Shown here piece by piece: positions 1 through 61,790 of a stretch of DNA of 64,000 bases; position 1 is the first letter of the stretch, and each line of letters opens with the position of its first letter. Location of the stretch: assembly GCF_006345805.1 (NCBI RefSeq), contig NC_043000.1, forward strand, positions 248,001-312,000, read 5' to 3'. Source of the stretch: Octopus sinensis. Its lineage: Eukaryota. A program made the position numbers and the translations under genes. Under the pieces are notes generated by a model that searched no databases, had not been told where the DNA came from, and was given only the letters and a program-made list of their open reading frames with translations.

Positions 1-268
1 GTCATTTTGAGACCTTTTCAACTGTAACGATTAAATAATTAAATTTAGAAAAATTAGAAGAAAAGTTTTTTTAAAGGAATATTTGTATAGTAGTGTTCAA
101 ATATAAGTGGCATTCTGCCTTTCTCTGACTCCCTTGTTTGCACTTGTGTGTTCGAGGTCGTTGTGAATTCTTGGTAGGGTAGAAGAAGAAGAAGGCTGAA
201 GAGGAGAGGGGGTGGAAAAATTTGGGAGTGCATTATTAGCTTTCTTAATGAGGATATCGAGGGAAGTA

Positions 269-1258
269 ATAGAAACAGACATATATTATAAGCCTACAGA
301 CTCTAAGCAATATCTTCCATTCAATTCATGCCACCCCAGGACACACCAGGATGAATATCCCTTCAATCTAGCAAAAATGATATCACTATAGTCTCTAATG
401 CAAACACGAGAGACACACGACTACAGAACTAAAAGATATCCTTATCACCAGGAACTATCCACCTTCACTTATTGACAAGTGCATTCAACGTGCCCTTCAA
501 ATTAAACATCAAGGAACTGAGACATCCCAAATCAAAGAAAAACTTACCACCAAAAGCCTTACCATACATCTCACACACAACCCTCTCAATAACGAAGCCT
601 TCGGCACCATCCTCCACAACATACCCCTCCTAAAAAAAGACCACAAAATGAACACAATCCTCAAACACACACGATCATAAAAGCAAGAGACAGCCTAAAT
701 CCATGAAAAGTCTCCTAACACAAGCTCGAATTCACTCTTCAACACAGAAGCCGACAGTAAAAAAATGTGGAAGACCCAATTGCGGGATATGCGACTATCT
801 AATTGAGGGATCAGAGTTCTCCTTCAAACAGGGATAACGGTTTACAGTGAAAAGAAACTTCACATGTGCTTCGGAGAACCTAATATACTCACTAACCTGC
901 TCCGAGTGTCAAGAGCAGTACGTAGGCCAAACAAAAATAGTTATATTTGCGTAAAAGAATGGCCTGCACAGATCCCAGATAAAATTCCCCAAAACAGAAA
1001 AATAGCTTTCAGCCAACACATAGATACTTGCGCCAACAACAAAACACCAGGCTTCAGGATTTCCCCCTCTACCAATTTAGGGACGATACAACCTCGAGAC
1101 AACGAATAAGTAAAGAAACTCTCTTTATTACAAAATACAGGCCACTTCTTAACGGGTCTACGACAAACGATTATATCCCTAACTTTAGAATAAAGAAATA
1201 CACAACAAATATTACATTCCAAAGAATCCATACTAATCAGCCCCAATCACAGCTATAA
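269..1258 (+). pseudogene. Frameshifted PLE ORF C-terminal half (RT thumb, Cys linker, GIY-YIG endonuclease)
   Basis: Manual translation gives IETDIYYKPTDSKQYLPFNSCHP, CGRPNCGICDYL and FTCASENLIYSLTCSECQEQYVGQT (LIY..YVG), plus KETLFITKYRPLLN. It carries several stops and frameshifts. Confidence 0.85.
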
Positions 1259-1895
1259 TCCATAACATGCCAACTTCAAGTCATACAACACCTCACTACT
1301 TTCACCCATTCATATTCTCCCTTCTCTGTTTCTTCTTCTTCCTCTTCTTCTTCATCATCATCATTATCATCATCATCGTCATCATCATCACCACCATCAT
1401 CATCATCTTCTTCTTCTTCTTCTCCTTCTCCTTCTTTTCTTCATCATCATCATCATCATCAACATCGTCATTCTTCTTCTTCTTCTTCTTTTCTTCTTCT
1501 TCTTCTTCTTCTTCTTCTTCTTTTCTTCTTCTTCTTCTGCTCCACCTCTACCTCTTAACTTTATCACTAATGCTTTTTAGTAAAACACCTACGCAATTCC
1601 ATAAACAAATATCTCAATAGAAATATTCTCCTGAATAGAACTGCAACTGCTAGCCGTCACTGACCATTCAAAATACAACAATCAAGGCACTCCCAAATTT
1701 TCCACCCCCCTCTCCTCTTCAGCCTTCTTCTTCTTATAACCCTACCAGGAATTCACAACGACCTCGAACACACAAGTGCAAACAAGGGAGTCAGAGAAAG
1801 GCAGAATGCCACTTATATTTGAAACACTACTATAGAAATATTGCTTTAAAAAAACTTTTCTTCTAATTTTTCTAAATTTAATTATTTAATCGTTA

Positions 1896-1932
1896 CAGTT
1901 GAAAAGGTCTCAAATGACCGAAACCGGTACTG
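1896..1932 (+). ncRNA. Minimal type I hammerhead ribozyme, U3-A8 variant
   Basis: CAG TTGAAAA GGTC-tcaaat-GACC GAAA CCGG TA CTG. Helix I is CAG/CTG, helix II GGTC/GACC, helix III the palindrome ACCGGT, and the triplet is GUA. Confidence 0.7.
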
Positions 1933-2009
1933 AAATGTTCTTTATAAAATTATTTTAGCATTTTCTATTTTGACTTGTTTTTTCATATATATATATATAT
2001 ATATATGTA

Positions 2010-2419
2010 GGCGCAGGAGTGGCTGTGTGGTAAGTAGCTTGCTTACCAACCACATGGTTCCGGGTTCAGTCCCACTGCGTGGCACCTTGGGCAAGTGTCT
2101 TCTACTATAGGTTCGGTTCGACCAAAGCCTTGTGAGTGGATTTGGGAGACGGAAACTGAAAGAAGCCCGTCGTATATATGTATATGTATATGTATGTGTG
2201 TGTTTGTGTCTGTGCTTGTCCCCCCCTAACATCGCTTGACAACCGATGCTGGTGTGTTTACATCCCCTTAACTTAGTGGCTCGGCAAAAGAGAACGATAG
2301 AATAAGTACTAGGCTTACAAACACTAAGTCCTGGGGTCGATTTCCTCGACTAAATGCAGTGTTCCAGCATGGCCGCAGTCAAATGACTGAAACAAGTAAA
2401 AGAGTAAAAGAGTAAAAAG
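2010..2419 (+). mobile_element. tRNA-derived SINE family A
   Basis: Box A/B-like head (TGGCTGTGTGG...GGTTCAGTCCC), internal microsatellite and (AGTAAAAG)n tail. About 20 copies or fragments occur in the window. Confidence 0.9.
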
Positions 2420-2429
2420 TATATATATA

Positions 2430-3302
2430 CTAGCTTAAGGTGACCCGCTCTACGCGCGGGTGAGGTTGTGGTTGTTACTTTCTGTTGCTTCCTTTCTGTT
2501 TCTTATCGCCACATTCTCCCACTTTGTTTCTCTCGCCTTTCTCTCTCACTTTCCCACTCTCTTACTCTTCATTTCTCTCGGACTTTCCCTAGCTTTCTCT
2601 TACTCTCTATCTTTCTCTATCTATCTCTCAAAAGATCTTGAGTAAGTTGAGAAAGAAAATATTTTTACGCTTCTTAAACCCTTCGTCGTTATTCTCATTC
2701 ACTCATTATTACTTTCTCCCTTCCTTTCACTTTCTCTCTATAACGTCGTTTGATAGCGTCTACTATCTTTCCTCCGCCGCCTTTGCCAGCGCTGTCCCCC
2801 CTCTCTCTCTACGTCTGTCTGCATTCATAGAGAGAATTATCATCGCCACTACCACCACCATACAATCATGAGAATATTTCTTTCTATATATAGATAGAGA
2901 GAGAGGGGGAGAGGGAAAGTAATAATGAGTGAATGAGAATAACGTCGAAGGGTTTAAAAAGCGTAAAAATATTGAAGGCGGTGGAGGAAAGATAGTAGAC
3001 GCTATGAAACGACGTTCTAGAGAGAAATTGAAAGGAAGGGAGGAAAGAGAGAGAGAGAGAGAGAGATGGAGGAAGACAGGCAGATAAAAGAATGAGAGGA
3101 GACTTGTCAAAGTGTGCATTTTTCGCCCTAGCAACGACACCTTTTAAGATAGGGATTTCTAACTTAGCCCACTCTCATCCTCACCTCATTTTACATGTCT
3201 CTGTAAATTTTGGAGTTAATCCGACGGGATCTAGTGGCCTTTAACCCGTTCCAATGCCAAAACCAGACAAACTTTTTGCATTTCAGAATTATAATATAGA
3301 GA
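2430..3302 (-). mobile_element. Non-autonomous Helitron
   Basis: On the minus strand it starts TCTCTATATT and ends with a hairpin (CCCGC..GCGGG) followed by CTAG at 2430-2433. Confidence 0.7.
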
Positions 3303-3420
3303 CTAGCTTAAGGTGACCCGCTCTATGTGCGTGTGATGTTTTGCTTGTTGGACCAATTTATTAATGTAGCATTGTTTTATTGTTTTAAAACGAAAGAGGC
3401 AATGCGTTTATTAAAAAAAA
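3303..3420 (-). mobile_element. 3' end of a second Helitron copy, head-to-tail with 2430-3302 (far end unresolved)
   Basis: Repeats CTAGCTTAAGGTGACCCGCTCTA of 2430-2452. Confidence 0.6.
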
Positions 3421-5153
3421 AAAAGACAAACGTCCGCCAATGGGAAGACAGTTCATATTCGATTAGAGCACTCTGGGTATAATCATAAAATTGAAAACTG
3501 GAATTTCGGTGGCGTATATTGTCGGGGACTCTAAATAAAAATTTTTTAACCTGCAGGAAGATAGTTTAAACCAAAAAAGGCAGACTGTAAACTCACAGCT
3601 GCAATAGTGTATGAAATTAGAATTCACACCCAGCTCAGTTTTGTAGAAAGAGTATCGCGACGTGAACGCATGAGTTGGGAGTTTGACTGACAGAGGTTAT
3701 ATGGTGACACATGCCAGTCCTTTTGACACCACCTAAACAATGGAACAGTGTATAAAATGTAATTAACAACTCATTTATAATAAATAACGTCATATCTTAT
3801 CAAGGGATACAAGTATGGTTTTTGCAACAGATACGGCATCTATGTTGTTAACCTGTATTTCGCGTCACTTCATTCTGATTCGCTATCATCTGCAATATTG
3901 TAGTTAAGGTTTTGTGAAGTAATGAATGGAGGCCTACAGTTTAATTTAGGTTTAGTCTTTTTTAATCTTAGAAATTTAAACGGTTTCTTCTTCTCACTTA
4001 GCATGCGGAATAAATTCTGTCTTCAGTTCCGTCAATATATATCATTGCACTTTTCTGATAATTCATCGTATGTTCCTGTTAAATACGAAACTCAGGAGTT
4101 TGTTTGCCACTGGTTCGCTTCTCTTTTTCTCTTCTTTTTCCAGCTCTTCACTCTCGTTGCGGATTGCGATCAAGGTTCGACCATCTGCCTCCTCCCGCTC
4201 GCCCTCGCAAAAAAAAAAAAATAGAAAAGAACAGTAAAAGAGGCGCCAGCAAGTGCCCGGCTTGTCAGGCCTGTAGCTGCCCGTACATGCTGGTACGTTC
4301 TGCCGCACCGCCACCTGGTTTCCGTCGGGCCACAGAGTGGTGGTGCAGCACCTGGCGGAAACGAGTGTTTGCCGAGTAAAACGGTTTTCGATCCGACAGC
4401 CGTGCACCAACCTGATACGGACATAGGTATGGGTTAAGCGAGTGAGCTGGGTTTATTGTTTCGAAAGGTAAAGACAAGTTTGAAACTTTGAGAACTGTGG
4501 TACCAAATTTCAATTTGATAGCTAATTGTGATTATCATTTGGCATAAGCTTTAGAATGGTGGCCAAAAGGCCTTTTGTTATTTGTTGCGAGTATTTACAA
4601 CATGCTTTTAAATCCCATCGAGTTCACCTTTGCCATTCATCTTTCTGAAATCACAAGACAGTTAGTCGCCCGCTGACACTCATTGACGCTACATTGAAGA
4701 GGCCAGGGAACAGAAGAAAGAAGACATGCACCCAACACCAGAGCTGAAGACACCTCCGAAAGGTGGGGGGGGGGGCGCGCCACATCAAAACGGTAGAGGA
4801 GTAGGGGCCGAAACCAGATATGGTTCCTCCTGATGATGTCTTGAGCTAACTGGATCCAATAAAGGAGCTGTTGTGGTAGCAGACCACGAAACACGGTTGA
4901 AATTCCATGTAACAGTCAAGTACAAATTTCGATATAACTGACTGTATCCGGCCCCCAAACTTCTGACCTTTGACCTAGTATGAAAAAGAAGCCGTAGTTT
5001 GACAGAGTTATTAGAATATTGAGCAGTATTTGTTCAACGTTTTAGGTTCTGAGTTCGAATGTTATCAAAGTCAGTTTTGCCTAATATGTTTCTGAAGATT
5101 CAATAGAATAAAATGCCAGTGAAGTACGGGGTTTGTATCATTAATTAATTAAC

Positions 5154-19413: not shown

Positions 19414-19730
19414 AATCATCATCATCGTCATCGTCATCACTATCATCATCATCATCATCATCACCATCGTCATCATGACTATCATCATATCCCTCCTTCT
19501 TCTCTTCCTCCTCCTCCTCATCATCATTACGATCACGACGACGACGACGACGACGACAATCATCATCATCATCATCACCTTCATCTACATCATCACTACC
19601 ACCGCCATCATCATCATCATCATCGTCATCATCATCATCATCATCATCGTCATCATCGTCATCGTCATCATCATCGTCGTCATCATCATCATCATCATCA
19701 TCGTCATCGTCATCATCATCATCATCGTCG

Positions 19731-19762
<32 letters not shown>

Positions 19763-19778
19763 GTCATCATCATCGTCG

Positions 19779-19810
<32 letters not shown>

Positions 19811-19926
19811 GTCGTCGTCGCATCATCATCATCGTCGTCATCATCATCATCATCATAATCATCGTCATCGTCATCATCATCATCATCGTCGTCGTCATCA
19901 TCGTCGTCGTCATCATCATCATCATC

Positions 19927-19998
<72 letters not shown>

Positions 19999-20026
19999 GT
20001 CATCATCATCATCATCATCATCGTCG

Positions 20027-20058
<32 letters not shown>

Positions 20059-20074
20059 GTCATCATCATCGTCG

Positions 20075-20106
<32 letters not shown>

Positions 20107-20182
20107 GTCGTCGTCGTCATCATCATCGTCGTCATCATCATCATCATCATCATCGTCATCGTCATCATCATCATCATCGTCG

Positions 20183-20220
<38 letters not shown>

Positions 20221-20236
20221 GTCATCATCATCGTCG

Positions 20237-20274
<38 letters not shown>

Positions 20275-20371
20275 GTCGTCGTCGTCATCATCATCGTCGT
20301 CATCATCATCATCATCATCATCATCGTCATCGTCATCATCATCATCATCGTCGTCGTCATCATCGTCGTCG

Positions 20372-20437
<66 letters not shown>

Positions 20438-20460
20438 CCATCATCACCTTAATCATCATC
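19414..20460. repeat. ~1-kb (CAT)n/(CGT)n array
   Basis: Direct reading; source of the poly-His/Ile/Met pseudo-ORFs. Confidence 0.97.
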
Positions 20461-20645
20461 AGTTTCAGCAGTAGCAGCACCAGGATTATAAGTTCCTCCA
20501 TCGTCTTCATCTTATGATACTCACCAATATTAAAACCTTCAACCCTTGTCGTCTTCCTCCTCCTCCTCCCCTCCTCCTTCTTCGTTCTTGTTGTTTAGGA
20601 ATTTAATGCTGATGATGAGGAGGAGGGGGAGAACAGGAGCAAGAA

Positions 20646-28544: not shown

Positions 28545-29995
28545 AACTCTAGGCTATCTCTCTGACTTCACACATCAGCAAAAGTCATGGAACGGATAGT
28601 CAGAAAGAAACTATCGCATTCCTTGAGGAAAATAACTTGCTGAGTAATACCCAGCATGGTTTTCGACCAGGTAGGAGCTCCCTGACCCGGCTCTTACAGC
28701 ATTATGACTGGGTTTGAGGCAGTTACTCAACAAATCAAATGTGGACGTAATCTACCTTGATTTTGCAAAGCTTTTGACAAGGTGATCATGGTATGATATG
28801 CCACAAACTACGTGACCTCGGCATAGCTGGAAAACTTGGAGTGTGGTTGCATGACTTCCTGAAGATAGGAGTCAGGCAGTAGTGGTTAACGGAGCCACCT
28901 CTATGAACACACAAATAGTGAGCGGTGTTCCACAGGCACTGTCTTGGGACCACTGCTTTTATAGTGGCCCTCTCAGATATGCCCTCAAATGCCCGGATAG
29001 CCACTCTGGCCAGCTATGCAGACGATACGAAAGTCTCACAGAAAACAGAACCCCAGCGATGTTGCACACCTGCAGCAGGAGTTGGACTCAATCTCAGATG
29101 GGCCTAGGATAATAATATGCAGTTTAATGCTGAAAAATTCCAGGCCCTGCGCTACCAGCATCCAAAACTGAATATTAAACTTACAGGATACACCAGTCCA
29201 CAGGGAATTTCATCCCAGAGCCTAAGTCTGTGAGGACCTGGGTATCGACATGAGTGATGATACCTCTTTCCAAGTGCACATTACCAGGATGGCGACAAAG
29301 TGCAGACGACTGGCTGGGTGGATCCTAAGAACATTCAGAACCAGAGACAAGGAAACATGATGGTCCTCTGGCGGACATTTGTCCTCAGTCGCCTGGATTA
29401 CTGCTCACAGCTATGGTCACCCACCAGTGTAAAATTAACAGCGGACCTTGAAGCAATCCAGAGAAGCTTCACAAAGAAGATCGTCTCTTTGCAACAGCTC
29501 AGCTACTGGGAAAGGTTGAAACAGCTAAGACTTTACTCCCTGGAGAGAAGACGGGAGATGTATGCAGTAATATATGTCTGGAAGATCCTGGAAGGAATTG
29601 TGCTAAATTTTGGCATTGTAAGCTACACCAATGCTAGAACGGGACGACACTGCATAGTGCCAAAGATCCCAGCAATGCCATCATGCTTCAGGACCAGCTT
29701 CTGCAACAGCCTGGGTTTCAAGGGCCCACAACTTTTTAATATACTCCCAAAGAGTCTGAGGAACTTGCACAAAGTAGATGTAGCGGTTTTTAAATCAAAG
29801 CTGGACACCTTCCTGTCAAGAGTCCCAGATGAACCTACCTCACGGCAAGAGGTGCAAATGAGAGTAGCTGTATCAAACTACATTCTTCACCAAGTGCCAC
29901 ATATTAGATGAGGTTCGTCGTAATAACAGTGCAGCACAAAACGGCGGTGCATCAGCATGGCTGGAGCTCTGAGCTGAAACTAGAAACAAAAAAAA
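28545..29995 (+). pseudogene. 5'-truncated CR1/L2-group LINE (reverse transcriptase, C-terminus and 3' UTR)
   Basis: ISLTSHISKVMERIV, QHGFRPGRS, VDVIYLDFAK, SGVPQ, YADDTKV, SRLDYCSQLWSP and LYSLERRR, with frameshifts and an A-rich end. Confidence 0.93.
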
Positions 29996-33885: not shown

Positions 33886-34316
33886 GGCGGCGAGCTGGCA
33901 GAAACGTTAGCACGCCGGGCGAAATGTGTAGCCGTATTTCGTCTGTCGTTACGCTGTGAGTTCAAATTCCGCCGAGGTCAACTTTGCCTTTCATCCTTTC
34001 GGGGTTTATTAAATAAGTACCAGTTACGCACTGGGGTCGATATAATCGACCTAATCCGTTTGTCTGTCCTTGTTTGTCCTCTCTGTCTTTAGCCCCTTGT
34101 GGGCAATAAAGAAATAAGAAACGTTAGCACGCCGGGCGAAATGCTTAGCAGTATGTCGTCTGCCGTTACGTTCTGCGTTCAAATTCCGCCGAAGCCGACT
34201 ATGCCTTTCATCCTTTCATGATCGATAAATTAAAAACCAATTGCGTACTGGGTTCGATCTAATCGACTGGACCCTTCCCCAAAATTTTGGGCCGCGTACC
34301 TAAAGTAGAAAAGAAT
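33886..34316 (+). mobile_element. Tandem SINE family N (Nin-domain-like)
   Basis: GCCTTTCATCCTTTCGGGGTCGATAAA-type core, two units. Related clusters at 35470-35970 and 36792-37132. Confidence 0.8.
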
Positions 34317-35425: not shown

Positions 35426-37177
35426 AATATTATACTATATTACATTACATTATATATTATATATTCTCATCTATTCGGGGTCGATAAAATAAGTACCAGC
35501 TGAATACTGGAGTCGATGTAATCGATTCACTCCCTCTCCTGATATTGCTGGCCTTGTACCAGAATTTGAAACCATTAAGGCAATGACCTGGCAGAATCGT
35601 TAGCACGCTTAGCGTTATTTCCCCTGTCGCTACGTTCAGAGTTCAAATTTCGCCGAGATCGACTTTGCCTTTCATCCTTTCGGGGTCGATTAAATAAGTA
35701 CCAGTTACGCACTGGAGTCGATATAATCTACTTAATCTGCTTGTCTGTCCTTGTTTGTCCTCTCTGTGTTTAGCCCCTTGTGGGTAGTAAAGAAATAGAA
35801 ATAGGTATTTCGTCTGTCTTTACGTTCTGAGTTCAAATTCCGTCGAGGCCGACTTTGCCTTTCATCCTTTCGGAATCGATAAATCTAGTACCAGTTGCGC
35901 ACTGGGGTCGATTTAATCGACTGGCCCACTCCTCGAAAAATTTCGGGCCTTCTGCTAGAGTTAGAAAAAGAATAATTTTGTCATTCTCATTGTTGCTAGT
36001 ATTATTATTGTTGTTGTTGTTGTTGTTGTTGTTGTAGTTGCTGTTGTTGCCTTCGTCATTGTTGTTGCTGTTATTGTCGGAACCACCTACGGCTTATGTC
36101 AGCTGGCCTCATGTCGATGTTTATCAACAAGCATCCATCTTCCATCTTGATAACATTGGCAAACAACACTTGCCATGGACGAGATATGTAGTAATATACA
36201 TACCCCCTTTTACAGTTACTGACATCAATTCCCACCCCATCACCCACCCCCACTCTAAAAAAAAGAAACCCCGGCACCCATTGCTTGTCATCAACACATC
36301 TAACCTATTCCGAACCCACTCCTACGTTTCATCTTTCATCAATACAACTGTTGCTCACGGTCTTCGCCATTTTTGTCTGTCTTCATTCTCCTCTTCTACA
36401 AGCTGCTATTTTTAGCCTTCTCTTCCCCCTCTACCTCCTCCTCCTCCTCCTCCTCCTCATTCTTCTCATCCTCCACAACAGCAACAACAACAACAACAAC
36501 AACAGTAGTTACAAAAGGATTGCTGCTATCACCAACACCATCGCCACTACCATCATCGCCACCACCACCACCACCACCACCACCACCACTACCACCACTA
36601 GAAAAAGAAGAGGAGCTGAAGAAAAAAAGAAAATGAGAAGAAATGAAGGAGAGGGAAAGGAGGCAGAGGAGGAGAAGGCGGAGGAAGAGGAGAAAAATAT
36701 CAGCAACACATTATATAACACCCAAAATAAATACCAGTTCCATTTAATTAACTCCATGTTAAAGTGTAAAGAAAATACGACAGTTCAATAAGGCGGCGAG
36801 CTGGCAGAAACGTTAGCACGCCGGGCGAAATGCGTAGCCGTATTTCGTTTGCCGTTACGTTGTGAGTTCAAATTCCGCCGAGGTCGACTTTGCCTTTCAA
36901 CCTTTCGGGGTCTATTAAATAAGTACCAGTTACGCACTGGGGTCGATGTAATCGACTTAATCCGTTTGTCTGTCCTTGTTTGTCCTCTCTGTGTTTAGCC
37001 CCTTGTGGGTAGTAAAGAAATAGGTATTTCGTCTGCCGTTACATTCTGAGTTCAAATTCCGCCGAAGTCGACTTTGCCTTGTCCTTGTTATATCCCCTCT
37101 TTGTTTAGCCCCTTGTGGGCAATAAAGAAATAAAATACAATAGTTCAATACTTTTATTGTTTGTTACTTTCTAACCT

Positions 37178-46755: not shown

Positions 46756-46759
46756 AGAA

Positions 46760-47360
46760 ATATCTATTTCTTTATTGCTCACAGGGTGGGGGGCTAAACA
46801 TAGAGGACAAACAAGGAAAAACAAAGGGATTAAGTCGATTATATCGACCCCAGTGCGTAATTAGTACTTATTTAATCGACCCCGAAAGGATGAAAGGCAA
46901 AGTCGACCTCGGCGGATTTTGAACTCAGAACGTAACGGCAGACGAAATACCTATTTCTTTACTACCCACAAGGGGCTAAACACAGAGGGGACAAATAAGG
47001 ATAGACAAACGGATTAAGTCGATTACATCGATCCCAGTGCGTAACTGGTACTTAATTTAATCAACCCCGAAAGGATGAATGCCAAAGCGACCTCGGCGGA
47101 ATAACTCAGAAGTAACGGCAGACGAAATACCTATTTTCTTTATACCCACAAGGGGCTAAACACAGAGGGAACAAACCGGACAGACATAGTATTAAGTCGA
47201 TTACATCGACCCCAGTGCGTACTGGTACTTAATTTATCAACCCCGAAAGGATGAAAAGCAAAGTCGACCTCGGCGGAATTCGAACTCAGAACGTAACGGC
47301 AGACGAAATACCGCTGAGCGTTTCGCCCGGCGTGCTAACGTTTCTGCCAACTCGCCGCCT
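46760..47360 (-). mobile_element. SINE-N tandem array (one head, three body units of ~180 bp)
   Basis: Repeated CCCCGAAAGGATGAAAGGCAAAGTCGACCTCGGCGGA blocks. Confidence 0.88.
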
Positions 47361-49421: not shown

Positions 49422-49521
49422 NNNNNNNNNNNNNNNNNNNNNNNNNNNNNNNNNNNNNNNNNNNNNNNNNNNNNNNNNNNNNNNNNNNNNNNNNNNNNNN
49501 NNNNNNNNNNNNNNNNNNNNN
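49422..49521. other. Assembly gap (100 N)
   Basis: Run of exactly 100 Ns. Confidence 1.
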
Positions 49522-50640: not shown

Positions 50641-51059
50641 TCATACACTACAAACTTCACGAATAATCACTATATGTTAGTGTATGCAGTGTAGTCCTAA
50701 GTTAGGAAGTATTGAATATCTGAAACGTCAGATTAGTGGCCGGCATTATGCCGACTATATGTTTTACCGATCTCGATCAAAAGCTAATCTGGGACTACAC
50801 CACCCAACACATCATAAAAATTATAATATTCAGTGATTATCCTCAGTACCTCCTTTTCAGAAAAAAATTTCTTCAACAAGTGGGTGCATATTAAAATACA
50901 TTTAAAGGTTAAAATTATAAACAACTTATAAACAAAGGCAAAAGAAATCTCGAGTATAATCGACCGAAATTACAAAGATAATCTGGAACTCAACTGAGGA
51001 AAGAAAACTCGGAATGACCCGTCCTTGTTATCTTTTTATCGTCTATCGGGATGTTTGGT

Positions 51060-51270
51060 TTACTTGCTTCATTCACTTGATTGCGGCCATGCTGGTGCAC
51101 CGCCTTTAGTCGAACAAATCAATATTCTTTGTGAGCCGATTACTTATTCTATCGGTTTCTTTTACCGAACTCCTAAGTTACGGGGACATAAACACACCAG
51201 AACTGGTTGTCAAGCGATGGTGAAGGGACAAATATAGAGACACACACACAGATATATATATATATATATA

Positions 51271-51312
<42 letters not shown>

Positions 51313-51724
51313 CATATATATACTGCAAATAAAAAAAAACAAGAACAAACACAACAAGAAAAAAAAACAAAAACGCGAGAACGTGGTACATGCAAAGTAT
51401 TGACTGACGCTCATGGAAGGAATGAAAGGTAGTTTTACGTTTCCAGCAAAGCTCTTCATCAGAAACAGGAGACGGAGGAAAGTCCAAGAGGAAAGGAAGA
51501 CGGACGAAAAGAATCGCCAACGATCCACATACAGTTATATTTTGAAATATACATATATACGACGAGCTTATTCCATTTTCCGTCTACCAAATCCACTGAC
51601 AAGGCTTTGGTCGGCCAGAGGCTATAGTAGAAGACACTTGCCGAAGGTGTCACGCAGTGAGACTGAACCCGGAACCATGTGGTTGGGAAGCAAGATTCTT
51701 ACCACACAGCCACGCCTGTGCCTA
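51060..51724 (-). mobile_element. SINE-A hosting an HHR-bearing insert (~51322-51545)
   Basis: SINE halves at 51060-51250 and 51560-51724. Confidence 0.8.
51432..51466 (-). ncRNA. Minimal type I hammerhead motif, slightly degenerate
   Basis: GTTT CTGATGA A GAGC-ttt-GCTG GAAA CG TA AAAC, with palindrome ACGT and a G.G mismatch at the base of helix II. Confidence 0.55.
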
Positions 51725-51781
51725 TATATGCAGATATATATTCATACACATACATATTTCCGTGAATGTATATATATATAT

Positions 51782-51815
<34 letters not shown>

Positions 51816-51820
51816 TTATA

Positions 51821-52262
51821 TACAAAAATATAAGAGATTGTCCACTATGTGGTCGACTCTTGCGCTAAAAATAGTTCCGCTATGGTCTCAACCACCAAGA
51901 GAACGTAAACGAGCAGGACAAATGAGGGCATTCGAATCATAACAGCGAATATAATTGACTGAACCACACGTGTGTTTGACGTTATGTTAAAATCTGGCGT
52001 GTGGTTCAGTAAATTGTATTCAAGACAAATTCTACTGAAGAGCTACAGATATATTATGTAAGTAAAATTGCATAATCCATTAATAGCGAAACAATTGTCT
52101 AGAATTTATCTACATTTTTGTTATTTTTCATTTGTCCTGCTCGTTTACGTTCATAGTTGTGCTAATTCTCCTTGGAAACAATTCTTGGTGGTTGAGACCA
52201 TAGCGGATCTATTTTTAGCGCAAGAGTCGAACACATAGTGGACACTCTCTTATATTTGTGTA
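51821..52262 (+). mobile_element. Non-coding foldback element carrying a hammerhead ribozyme
   Basis: Arms 51821-51900/52183-52262 and 51901-51925/52128-52152 (25 bp perfect), inner hairpin 51948-52020, set in (TA)n. Confidence 0.8.
52027..52107 (+). ncRNA. Type I hammerhead ribozyme, canonical core
   Basis: AAATTCTA CTGAAGA GCTA-[38 nt]-TAGC GAAA C AATT G TC TAGAATTT. Helix I is 8 bp; the GUC triplet predicts cleavage after 52099. Confidence 0.85.
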
Positions 52263-53562
52263 TTAATTTTTACTGTACCTGGCTTTATGCGCTAAAACCA
52301 CTTGGTGTTAAATTGATGGTATATTAAATAACATCCAATTATTTCACCCTTATTTTTGATACATATATATATATATATATTATATATATATATATACACC
52401 CACACACAGTCACACACGCTCACAACACACAAAAACATGCACATATCACACAGAAATATACTAAAATAAGTGTATTCTGTGAAGGTATTCTGAAGTGAAT
52501 GAAGATAGGATGGTCAACATTCAATCATTTATGACTTTTGACTTGTCATAGTCGCATTAGATTCTGCCTCAATCCTTTAACTCACTCCACCATCAGAACT
52601 ACCAGCATCAGCACCAGCATCATCAGACCAACGACTACGATGCAACCCTGTGTGACTTGTATCTGCACCTGTCTGCACCATGTTTGAAAGTGGATACGAG
52701 CCCCCATACTGGGTTCTGTCAAAAGAAATGTGATGAGTGACTGTGCACCGGGCTTCAGCGCACAGTCAGACGTATGAGATGAAAATGATATTCTGGTTTA
52801 TAAGGTTAAACAAAGAAAAGAAAAAGAAAACGTAAAAAAATCTTGGCCCATGCCGAAAGAATCTTAGCCGGTGTGTTGGGGTGTCTAGGGTACAACTTCA
52901 AACCAAAACTAACCACTCAAATAAATATATTTTTATAAGTGAAGGCGAAAGTGGCTTCATTATATTACTCTGGATAAATCTACTTGATACATTAAACGCA
53001 TATTAGTGCGTGTGTTATTTGGAGCGTGTGTTTATGTGTGAGTGTGTGTGTGTGTGTGTTTGTGTTTGTGTGTATATTTATGTGTGTATTCATACGTACA
53101 CATTTCCATAAATACATAAAGATACCTATGTATATATATATGTATATATATATGTATATATATATATATATATATGTAAGTTTATTTAATATTCATAAAT
53201 ACATACAGATGCATATGCATGAATATACATACATACATACATACATACATACATACATACATACATACACAAACACACACGCTCTAGAATTATATATAAA
53301 CACATACACAAGCACTTTGACCAGCATATATTAACCACACGCATACATATTTCCGTGAATGTATAGTGGAAGCTATCCATGTGTAGTATATATATATATA
53401 TATATATATATATGCAAAGTAACATACACACACACATAATATAAATCATAGTAAATATCATTATGTATAATATAAGAATATAATATAAATAATATATACA
53501 TATGTATATCTATATTATGTATATATATACATAAATATATATATAATATATATATTATATAT

Positions 53563-60499: not shown

Positions 60500-61790
60500 G
60501 GCCGGGGGCTGGGCAGAATCGTTGGCACATCGGACAAAATGATTGGCAGTATTTCGTCTGCCGTTGCGTACTGAGTTCAAATTCCGCCGAGGTCGACTTT
60601 GCCTTTCATCCTTTCGGGGTCGATAAATTAAGTACCTGTTACGCACTGGAGTCGATATAATCGACTTAATCCGTTTGTCTGTCCTTGTTTGTCTCCTCTG
60701 TGTTTTAGCCCCTTGTGGGTAGTAAAGAAATAGGTATTTATGGCGGCGAGCTGGCAGACACATTAGCACGCCGGGCGAAATGCATAGCCGTATTTCTGAG
60801 TTCAAATTCCACCGAGGTCGACTTTGCCTTTTATCCTTTCGGGGTCGAAAAATTAAGTACCAGTTACGCACTGGGGTCGATATAATCGACTTAAACCGTG
60901 TGTCTGTCCTTGTTTGTCCTCCCTTTGTGGGTAGTAAAGAAATTGGTATTTAGGGCGGCGAGCTGGCAGACACATTAGCACGCCGGGCAAAATGCGTAGC
61001 CGTATTTCGTCTGCCGTTACGTTCTGAGTTCAAATTCCGCCGAGGTCGACTTTGCTTTTCATCCTTTCGGGGTCGATAAATTAAGTACCTGTTACGCATT
61101 GGGGTCGATATATGCGACTTAATCCGTTTGTCTGTCCTTGTTTGTCTCCTCTGTGTTTAGCCCCTTGTGGGTAGTAAAGAAATAGGTATTATGGCGGCGA
61201 GCTGGCAGACACATTAGCACGCCGGCGAAATGCATAGCCGTTTTTTGAGTTCAAATTCCACCGAGGTCGACTTTGCCTTTTATCCTTTCGGGGTCGAAAA
61301 ATTAAGTACCAGTTACGCACTGGGGTCGATATAATCGACTTAAACCGTTGTGTCTGTCCTTGTTTGTCTCCCTTGTGTGGTAGTAAAGAAATTGGTATTT
61401 AGGGCGGCGAGCTGGCAGACACATTAGCACGCCGGGCAAAATGCGTAGCCGTATTTCGTCTGCCGTTACGTTCTGAGTTCAAATTCCGCCGAGGTCGACT
61501 TTGCTTTTCATCCTTTCGGGGTCGATAAATTAAGTACCTGTTACGCATTGGGGTCGATATAATCGACTGAATCCGTTTGTCTGACATTGTTTGTCCCCTC
61601 TGTGTTTAGCCCCTTGTGAATAGTAAAGAAATAAGTATTTCTTCCGGGTCTTTACGTCCGGAGTTCAAATATCCACCGAAGTTAACTTCGACTTTCATTC
61701 CTTTGGAGTCGATAAAGTAAAGTACCAGTCAAGTGCTGAGGGGGAAGATATAGTGTTTTTGTTCTCTTGCTTCGAAATTGCTGACCTTGT
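60500..61790 (+). repeat. SINE-N tandem array with a dimeric higher-order unit
   Basis: Unit starts at ~60500, 60742, 60954, 61193 and 61403. Confidence 0.9.

Follow-up and report, generated by a model that had tools for sequence, protein, structure and literature searches.

In the accessible portions of the reports cited here, EN+ Penelope-like elements (PLEs) insert with an inverted, 5′-truncated copy beside the 5′ end, carry a 30–40 bp tail at one end, form partial tandems and show a bias toward microsatellites (Craig et al., 2021, PMC8557442). An inverted pLTR with a tail, a head-to-head arrangement and internal deletions were likewise described for PLEs by Arkhipova et al., who favored self-priming on an antisense template (Arkhipova et al., 2013, PMC3846280). 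Purified PLE protein was found to cut and extend both strands and to prefer AT-rich DNA, and PLE reverse transcription to begin internally at two positions, between which the tail lies (Frangieh et al., 2024, PMC11167929). PLEs are reportedly abundant in octopus genomes (PMC13282606, PMC8967140), and hammerhead loci have been reported in the giant squid (PMC6962438).

Type I hammerheads with a short palindromic helix III, a need for dimers and low activity in vitro are described from metazoan PLEs and repeats, and this anatomy is common to PLEs and retrozymes (Cervera and De la Pena, 2014, PMC4209133). Animal retrozymes measure 170–400 nt (Cervera and De la Pena, 2020, PMC7229834), and retrozymes derive from pLTRs (Li, Clavereau and Pollet, 2026, preprint 10.64898/2026.07.22.740005; PMC7229834; PMC7761336); in the accessible literature, their mobilization by PLEs has so far been inferred from co-occurrence and homology. 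Among titles and abstract openings, a coverage outside which subscription papers fall, we found neither a fixed foldback hammerhead class nor the present family. Two motifs of the element had no matches in the supplement of PMC8557442, and the family may already be named in a repeat library (Repbase/Dfam or the supplement of PMC13282606).

The locus described here lies in a window of 64,000 nt from Octopus sinensis, by which we mean the whole stretch of DNA that was analyzed, and consists of the following features:

51769..51819, no strand: left (TA)n microsatellite, putative target site (Tandem Repeats Finder row 51769-51822, period 2)
51820..51925, minus strand: 106 nt from the 3′ end of the element, copied in inverted and 5′-truncated form, with the 3′ end leftward into (TA)n (alignment, 4 mismatches in 106)
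51926..52357, plus strand: direct, 5′-truncated, pLTR-like copy of the 3′ end of the family, tail included, with an approximate right edge (pieces X2-9 and X3-17 start exactly at 51926; the family reaches 52322 in X5-31 and has depth up to the bin ending at 52350)
51947..52021, plus strand: inner hairpin of ~24 bp, preceding the hammerhead (folds; both arms covered by X1-1, X2-9 and X5-25)
52027..52107, plus strand: type I hammerhead motif with a long helix II, a 2-bp palindromic helix III and a predicted cut at 52099/52100 (descriptor and folds)
52153..52182, plus strand: 30-nt segment that the inverted copy lacks (the bulge), predicted to form a small hairpin and variable in the family (each of the four runs has loose ends at 52152, 52157 or 52177)
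52264..52357, plus strand: tail, family sequence beyond the common 3′ end, at one end only (52263 is the last aligned position of X1-6, X2-15 and X3-23; X5-31 extends as far as 52322; the letters at a tandem joint match 52276-52303)
52359..52396, no strand: right (TA)n microsatellite, putative target site (Tandem Repeats Finder row 52359-52396)

As far as the accessible text of the published reports goes, the locus resembles EN+ PLE insertions in its inverted, 5′-truncated neighbor placed head to head with a second truncated copy, in a tail at one end together with alternative 3′ ends across the family, in its putative microsatellite or AT-rich target and, as a motif and in predicted folds, in a type I hammerhead within the pLTR. 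Partial head-to-tail tandems, also a PLE trait, occur in the family (the joint was found in two of the four runs) and not at the locus itself. The locus differs from these insertions in having no ORF, where an EN+ PLE would encode a telomerase-like RT and a GIY-YIG endonuclease, in a tail of ~94 nt (~40 nt in the tandem copy) that is longer than the published 30–40 nt, and in the 30-nt deletion of the inverted copy; with an ORF seen neither in the present copy nor for a parent element, the assignment to PLEs is one of architecture. In contrast to the rotifer examples (PMC3846280), the junction at 51925/51926 has no apparent palindrome or overlap and, since a junction palindrome is lacking, the model of antisense self-priming fits this locus less well. 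With the Poseidon element PAc of Anolis, the locus shares at least two 3′ ends downstream of the hammerhead and a putative AT-rich target; the PAc ORF begins inside the hammerhead, whereas no such ORF start was recognizable at the octopus locus (PMC11167929).

The hammerhead shares with those described in the accessible part of PMC4209133 a complete core, the G10.1-C11.1 pair, a 2-bp helix III, a 4-nt palindromic loop and a predicted dimer fold, but its helix II is a long interrupted stem and, as positions 9 and 10.1 are not separated by an extra base, it departs from the strict min-HHR. Animal non-LTR retrozymes, as described in the portions available, are, like the copy at this locus, non-coding, low in GC, equipped with a type I hammerhead and related to PLEs, and the family here includes a head-to-tail unit of ~281 nt. 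Expression as linear and circular monomeric RNAs is a further hallmark of such retrozymes. Unlike those retrozymes, which are recognized by at least two tandem hammerhead units, the locus has no tandem and a single hammerhead (the only one in the window), to which inverted arms and a tail are added.

Structure of the foldback and its hammerhead

Apart from 4 mismatches in 106 nt (102 paired), the left arm (51820-51925) reads as 52128-52263 reverse-complemented with 52153-52182 left out, which bears out the original prediction of ~105 bp of terminal pairing interrupted by a 30-nt bulge. The outer part pairs 51820-51900 with 52183-52263 (77 of 81 positions) and the inner part 51901-51925 with 52128-52152 (25 of 25), so that the arms are 95–100% complementary, and both of their outer ends finish in TA. 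At the bulge (52153-52182), a small hairpin is predicted, and loose ends fall there in all four sequencing runs. Four differences in 106 nt between the arms suggest that the insertion is not recent. All four mismatches, at 51825, 51838, 51852 and 51875, are of the transversion type, although the numbers are small.

Inside the arms, the expected inner hairpin of ~23 bp was also found, with 21 of 22 positions paired between 51949-51970 and 51998-52019 and a z of −9.5 when folded alone, and the core between the arms (51926-52127) is structured as well (z −6.3). Folding of the RNA, which had been proposed as a check, gave a very stable branched structure for 51821-52262 (442 nt; −235.4 kcal/mol, z −25.6), a stability that none of 100 shuffles equaled. 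The claim that there is no ORF holds, the longest stop-to-stop frame touching the element being 154 aa and lying mostly in the upstream flank. The right border, on the other hand, had been misplaced: the element does not stop at 52262, since family sequence continues to at least 52322 in piece X5-31 and the (TA)n begins at 52359. Comparison of the window with itself and a tandem-repeat search revealed no second copy of the element in the window.

The hammerhead at 52027-52107 comprises a helix I of 8 bp, the CUGAAGA core, a helix II of 4 bp, GAAA, the ACAAUUGU palindrome and GUC, with helix II lengthened by a 9-bp helix (52053-52061/52068-52076) and a predicted cleavage site between 52099 and 52100. 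As a motif and in the predicted fold, it thus agrees with the complete hammerhead that had been described, whose loop II extends into a 9-bp helix and whose palindrome and GUC are intact. A hammerhead descriptor applied to both strands of the window matched at this position and nowhere else, and among 60 shuffled windows it gave no equally strict match and one looser match. A search against Rfam, which the original prediction had also proposed, came out negative: neither RF00163 nor the other hammerhead families of its clan matched at the gathering score or even at E ≤ 10, a miss that is probably explained by the long helix II.

While the sequence of the hammerhead is intact, its helix III is only 2 bp long and does not form in the monomer fold, where it has a pair probability of 0.02–0.03, compared with 0.6–0.8 for helix I and about 1.0 for helix II. 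In an unconstrained fold of two copies, the molecules were predicted to form a double hammerhead in which the palindrome becomes an 8-bp intermolecular helix (−38.4 kcal/mol). Because helix III is absent from the monomer fold and present in the dimer fold, no cleavage in cis is expected of a lone copy; from these models, we surmise that such a copy is probably inert and cleaves only as a palindrome-paired dimer.

Among the 40 of 99 family variants that were individually listed, the catalytic core was touched at N7 only, and seven of the nine hammerhead pairs hit stay paired. One A-U pair in helix II becomes G-C through changes on both sides, at ~42% and 44% of the depth in run X1, these being separate frequencies and not those of one molecule. 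Two helix I pairs, including the outer one, are broken by variants among the same 40, as are pairs in the arms of the inner hairpin by all four of the variants listed there; in both cases, partner changes could be among the other 59.

The family in public sequencing runs

Part of the stretch was present in 20 of the 24 public runs listed, half or more of it in none; five runs presumed to be RNA contained small shares. We aligned the contigs of four of these runs (X1, X2, X3 and X5, from three organism codes) to 51700-52600 at 80% likeness and obtained 668, 594, 259 and 511 family contigs, most of them less than 99% alike (573 of the 668 in X1). In each listed run, in contrast, a single contig (at 52436 or 52494-52600) represented the flank and differed from it at 1 position. 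Hundreds of mostly divergent contigs against a single flank contig establish that the element belongs to a divergent multicopy family common to close relatives. When depth is summed over the element, it exceeds that of the unique right flank by a factor of ~30 to 2500, which is not to be read as a copy number. Individually listed were 32 of the 2051 pieces and 24 of the 288 loose ends, and the coordinates of minus-strand pieces were calibrated on the flank contigs X1-8, X2-16 and X5-32, each of which has 51 letters remaining to the left of 52436. The family pattern had no match in viral contigs and none in metagenome contigs.

Four of the 32 listed pieces reach 51926-51930. Two of them, X2-9 and X3-17, align from exactly 51926, and the letters upstream (55 and 9, respectively) are unlike the left arm; in the remaining two, 1 and 2 letters are left over. 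At the opposite end, three listed pieces (X1-6, X3-23 and X2-15) stop exactly at 52263, followed by 22, 834 and 1 unlike letters, respectively, and 52263 is the position mirrored by the outer end of the left arm. In X3, a loose end consisting of AT repeats lies behind 52263. Piece X5-31 carries the tail to 52322, and the sequence past the arm is therefore family sequence in some copies.

We also detected a head-to-tail joint from 52277, through 29 letters, to 52024, in one contig each of X2 and X5. These 29 letters match window positions 52276-52303, which places the end of the tail in that copy ~40 nt past 52263, and the second unit starts just before helix I, giving a unit of ~281–283 nt with one hammerhead. 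Other copies are rearranged differently: X5 contains an opposite-strand joint at 52103/52177, X3 a skip from 52118 to 52203, and X2 a jump back from 52208 to 52149. At position 52231, nearly all of the family depth and the left arm have one and the same base, from which the right arm differs; as this right-arm base is private to the locus, that arm mismatch was not inherited. The inner hairpin, judged by its sequence, is family sequence and would not have been created at this locus.

Depth in the bin 51886-51916 was 0.15, 0, 0 and 6.3, compared with 240–4600 in the next bin; such a hole would agree with a junction that other copies do not share, but it proves nothing in filtered contigs. A depth step was also seen near the predicted cut at 52100, although contigs cannot show RNA ends.

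Origin of the head-to-head arrangement

We consider it likely, with a probability of roughly 0.7, that the locus is a single hammerhead-bearing end of a PLE inserted into (TA)n as an inverted and a direct copy placed head to head, and that the foldback is a by-product of this insertion. Its geometry is that of two copies of one 3′ end with both 3′ ends pointing outward into (TA)n, one ending at the recurrent 52263 of the family and the other carrying the tail. The (TA)n flanks the element on both sides, and a target duplication cannot be read inside such a microsatellite. On this model, the GIY-YIG/RT protein of the element would nick both strands of the TA tract, and two cDNAs would be primed at internal sites of the RNA, one equivalent to 52263 and the other further downstream. 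The first cDNA would stop after 106 nt, with the 30-nt hairpin skipped (or lost later), the second after about 430 nt, and the two would then be joined at 51925/51926. The hammerhead would be the normal pLTR ribozyme of the parent element.

The original prediction had seen in the locus a retrozyme-like or PLE-derived hammerhead retroelement targeted to (TA)n, and a PLE-type, hammerhead-bearing piece in (TA)n is what we find. Its further proposal, that the inverted arms define an undescribed non-autonomous class, finds no support in the comparison with the family, in which other copies lack the arm upstream of 51926, end at 52263 or carry the tail, and have other junctions. The outcome that it had set against itself, an inverted truncation of a PLE pLTR, is the one favored by these varied upstream sequences, ends and junctions. 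The pattern is an ordinary one, and its architecture has already been published. Read as a PLE insertion, the locus is one more truncated, partly inverted example and matters little in itself, but it records PLE integration compactly, two 3′ ends and a head-to-head joint lying within 540 bp, and with so many family copies, counts of junctions could test two-strand priming.

A second reading accepts the same insertion-made inversion and differs in the parent, which would be a non-autonomous, PLE-mobilized structured RNA (retrozyme- or SINE-like) whose ~281-nt unit is cut by paired hammerheads and could circularize. The head-to-tail unit of ~281–283 nt with one hammerhead in X2 and X5 falls within the 170–400 nt of animal retrozymes, the core at 51926-52127 is structured, no ORF was seen, and retrozymes do stem from pLTRs. 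The joint, however, is represented by one contig per run at ~1.5 times the flank depth, which fits a single partial tandem of the kind typical for PLEs; in X2-9, the family reaches 150 nt or more upstream of where the unit begins; and in the fold of the fragment 52024-52306, helix I has a pair probability of 0. We regard a parent of this kind as unlikely. Were it true that the parent is non-autonomous and circular, this would be direct evidence of PLE machinery mobilizing retrozymes. It is doubtful, and slightly more so, that the family as a whole is a high-copy, non-coding RNA parasite of PLEs, with a long-stem hammerhead and an upstream hairpin, whose dimers would be cut into ~281-nt circles that reinsert with the full PLE signature; if true, this would tie retrozymes to PLE integration chemistry within one family.

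It appears improbable that, as first envisaged, a new non-autonomous class replicates as the entire ~440-nt foldback. The very stable branched fold and the intact hammerhead core speak for it, as might contigs other than the 32 of 2051 that were individually listed. Against it, X2-9 and X3-17 depart from the arm upstream of 51926, the tail lies outside the foldback, an arm mismatch is private to the locus, and another copy has a different inversion point. We give still less credence to a MITE-like DNA transposon with terminal inverted repeats of ~100 bp, a TA target duplication and a captured hammerhead: its appeal lies in the TA at both outer arm ends and in arms that are 95–100% complementary, but piece X5-31 takes the family beyond the right arm, the sequence upstream of 51926 is different, copies begin at various internal positions, and a head-to-tail joint exists. 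Shared terminal inverted repeats with fixed ends, as a MITE or foldback DNA transposon would have in all copies, are not seen in pieces X2-9, X3-17 and X5-31. The least probable reading of all is that the inversion was made after insertion, by DNA repair or template switching, or is an assembly artefact, for although none of the 32 listed contigs spans the foldback locus and a gap of 100 N lies at 49422-49521 in the assembly, the outer end of the arm coincides with the recurrent 3′ end at 52263, and four substitutions plus a 30-nt gap between the arms would be unexpected for a chimeric read.

Hammerheads in metagenome contigs and the surroundings of the element

A general hammerhead pattern had 97 matches in metagenome contigs, three of which have real helices I and II and the same helix III as the octopus locus; the other 94 lack helices I and II and were treated as chance. 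None of the contigs with pattern matches showed DNA similarity to the element. Two of the three true hammerheads lie on the strand of an ORF of ~800 aa with a weak RVT_1 match (E 4e-5 and 4e-6, below the Pfam cut-off), arranged as follows:

Contig L077, 282-3952, minus strand: upstream ORF, ~800-aa RT ORF and type I hammerhead
Contig L010, 949-4853, minus strand: upstream ORF, ~800-aa RT ORF and type I hammerhead

L077 is bounded at both ends by 9-nt telomere-like repeats. The third contig, L058, has the same hammerhead as L010 and similar repeats, with no ORF of 100 aa. We take L077 and L010 to be probable endonuclease-less telomeric PLEs of a microbial eukaryote. They provide examples of this form of helix III next to RTs of that kind, which favors the PLE reading of the octopus locus.

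The DNA of the window is animal-like and rich in microsatellites and dispersed repeats. Close to the element, an abundant SINE-like repeat lies in two halves (51040-51250 and 51559-51722, each with 19 BLAST pieces in the window), split by (TA)n and ~240 bp of other sequence, and the second half stops ~100 bp short of the element on its left side. A stretch of 30 nt adjoining the (TA)n of the insertion on the left (51743-51772) recurs 1.6 kb downstream at 53336-53365 with 93% identity. Another dispersed family, of ~190–230 nt, accounts for 27 BLAST pieces in the window and occurs as short head-to-tail tandems, at 46758-47312 (about 3 units) and 60531-61729 (about 5, 60.5–61.6 kb), with further copies at 33934-34268, 35616-35922 and 36789-37132; no tRNA gene was called in it, and it gave no match to the hammerhead descriptor. 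On the plus strand, a 216-aa frame at 29261-29911 had no Pfam match at E ≤ 0.01; we take it to resemble the C-terminal part of a CR1/L2-type LINE ORF. Finally, ~350 copies of an ATC trinucleotide repeat occupy 19415-20461.
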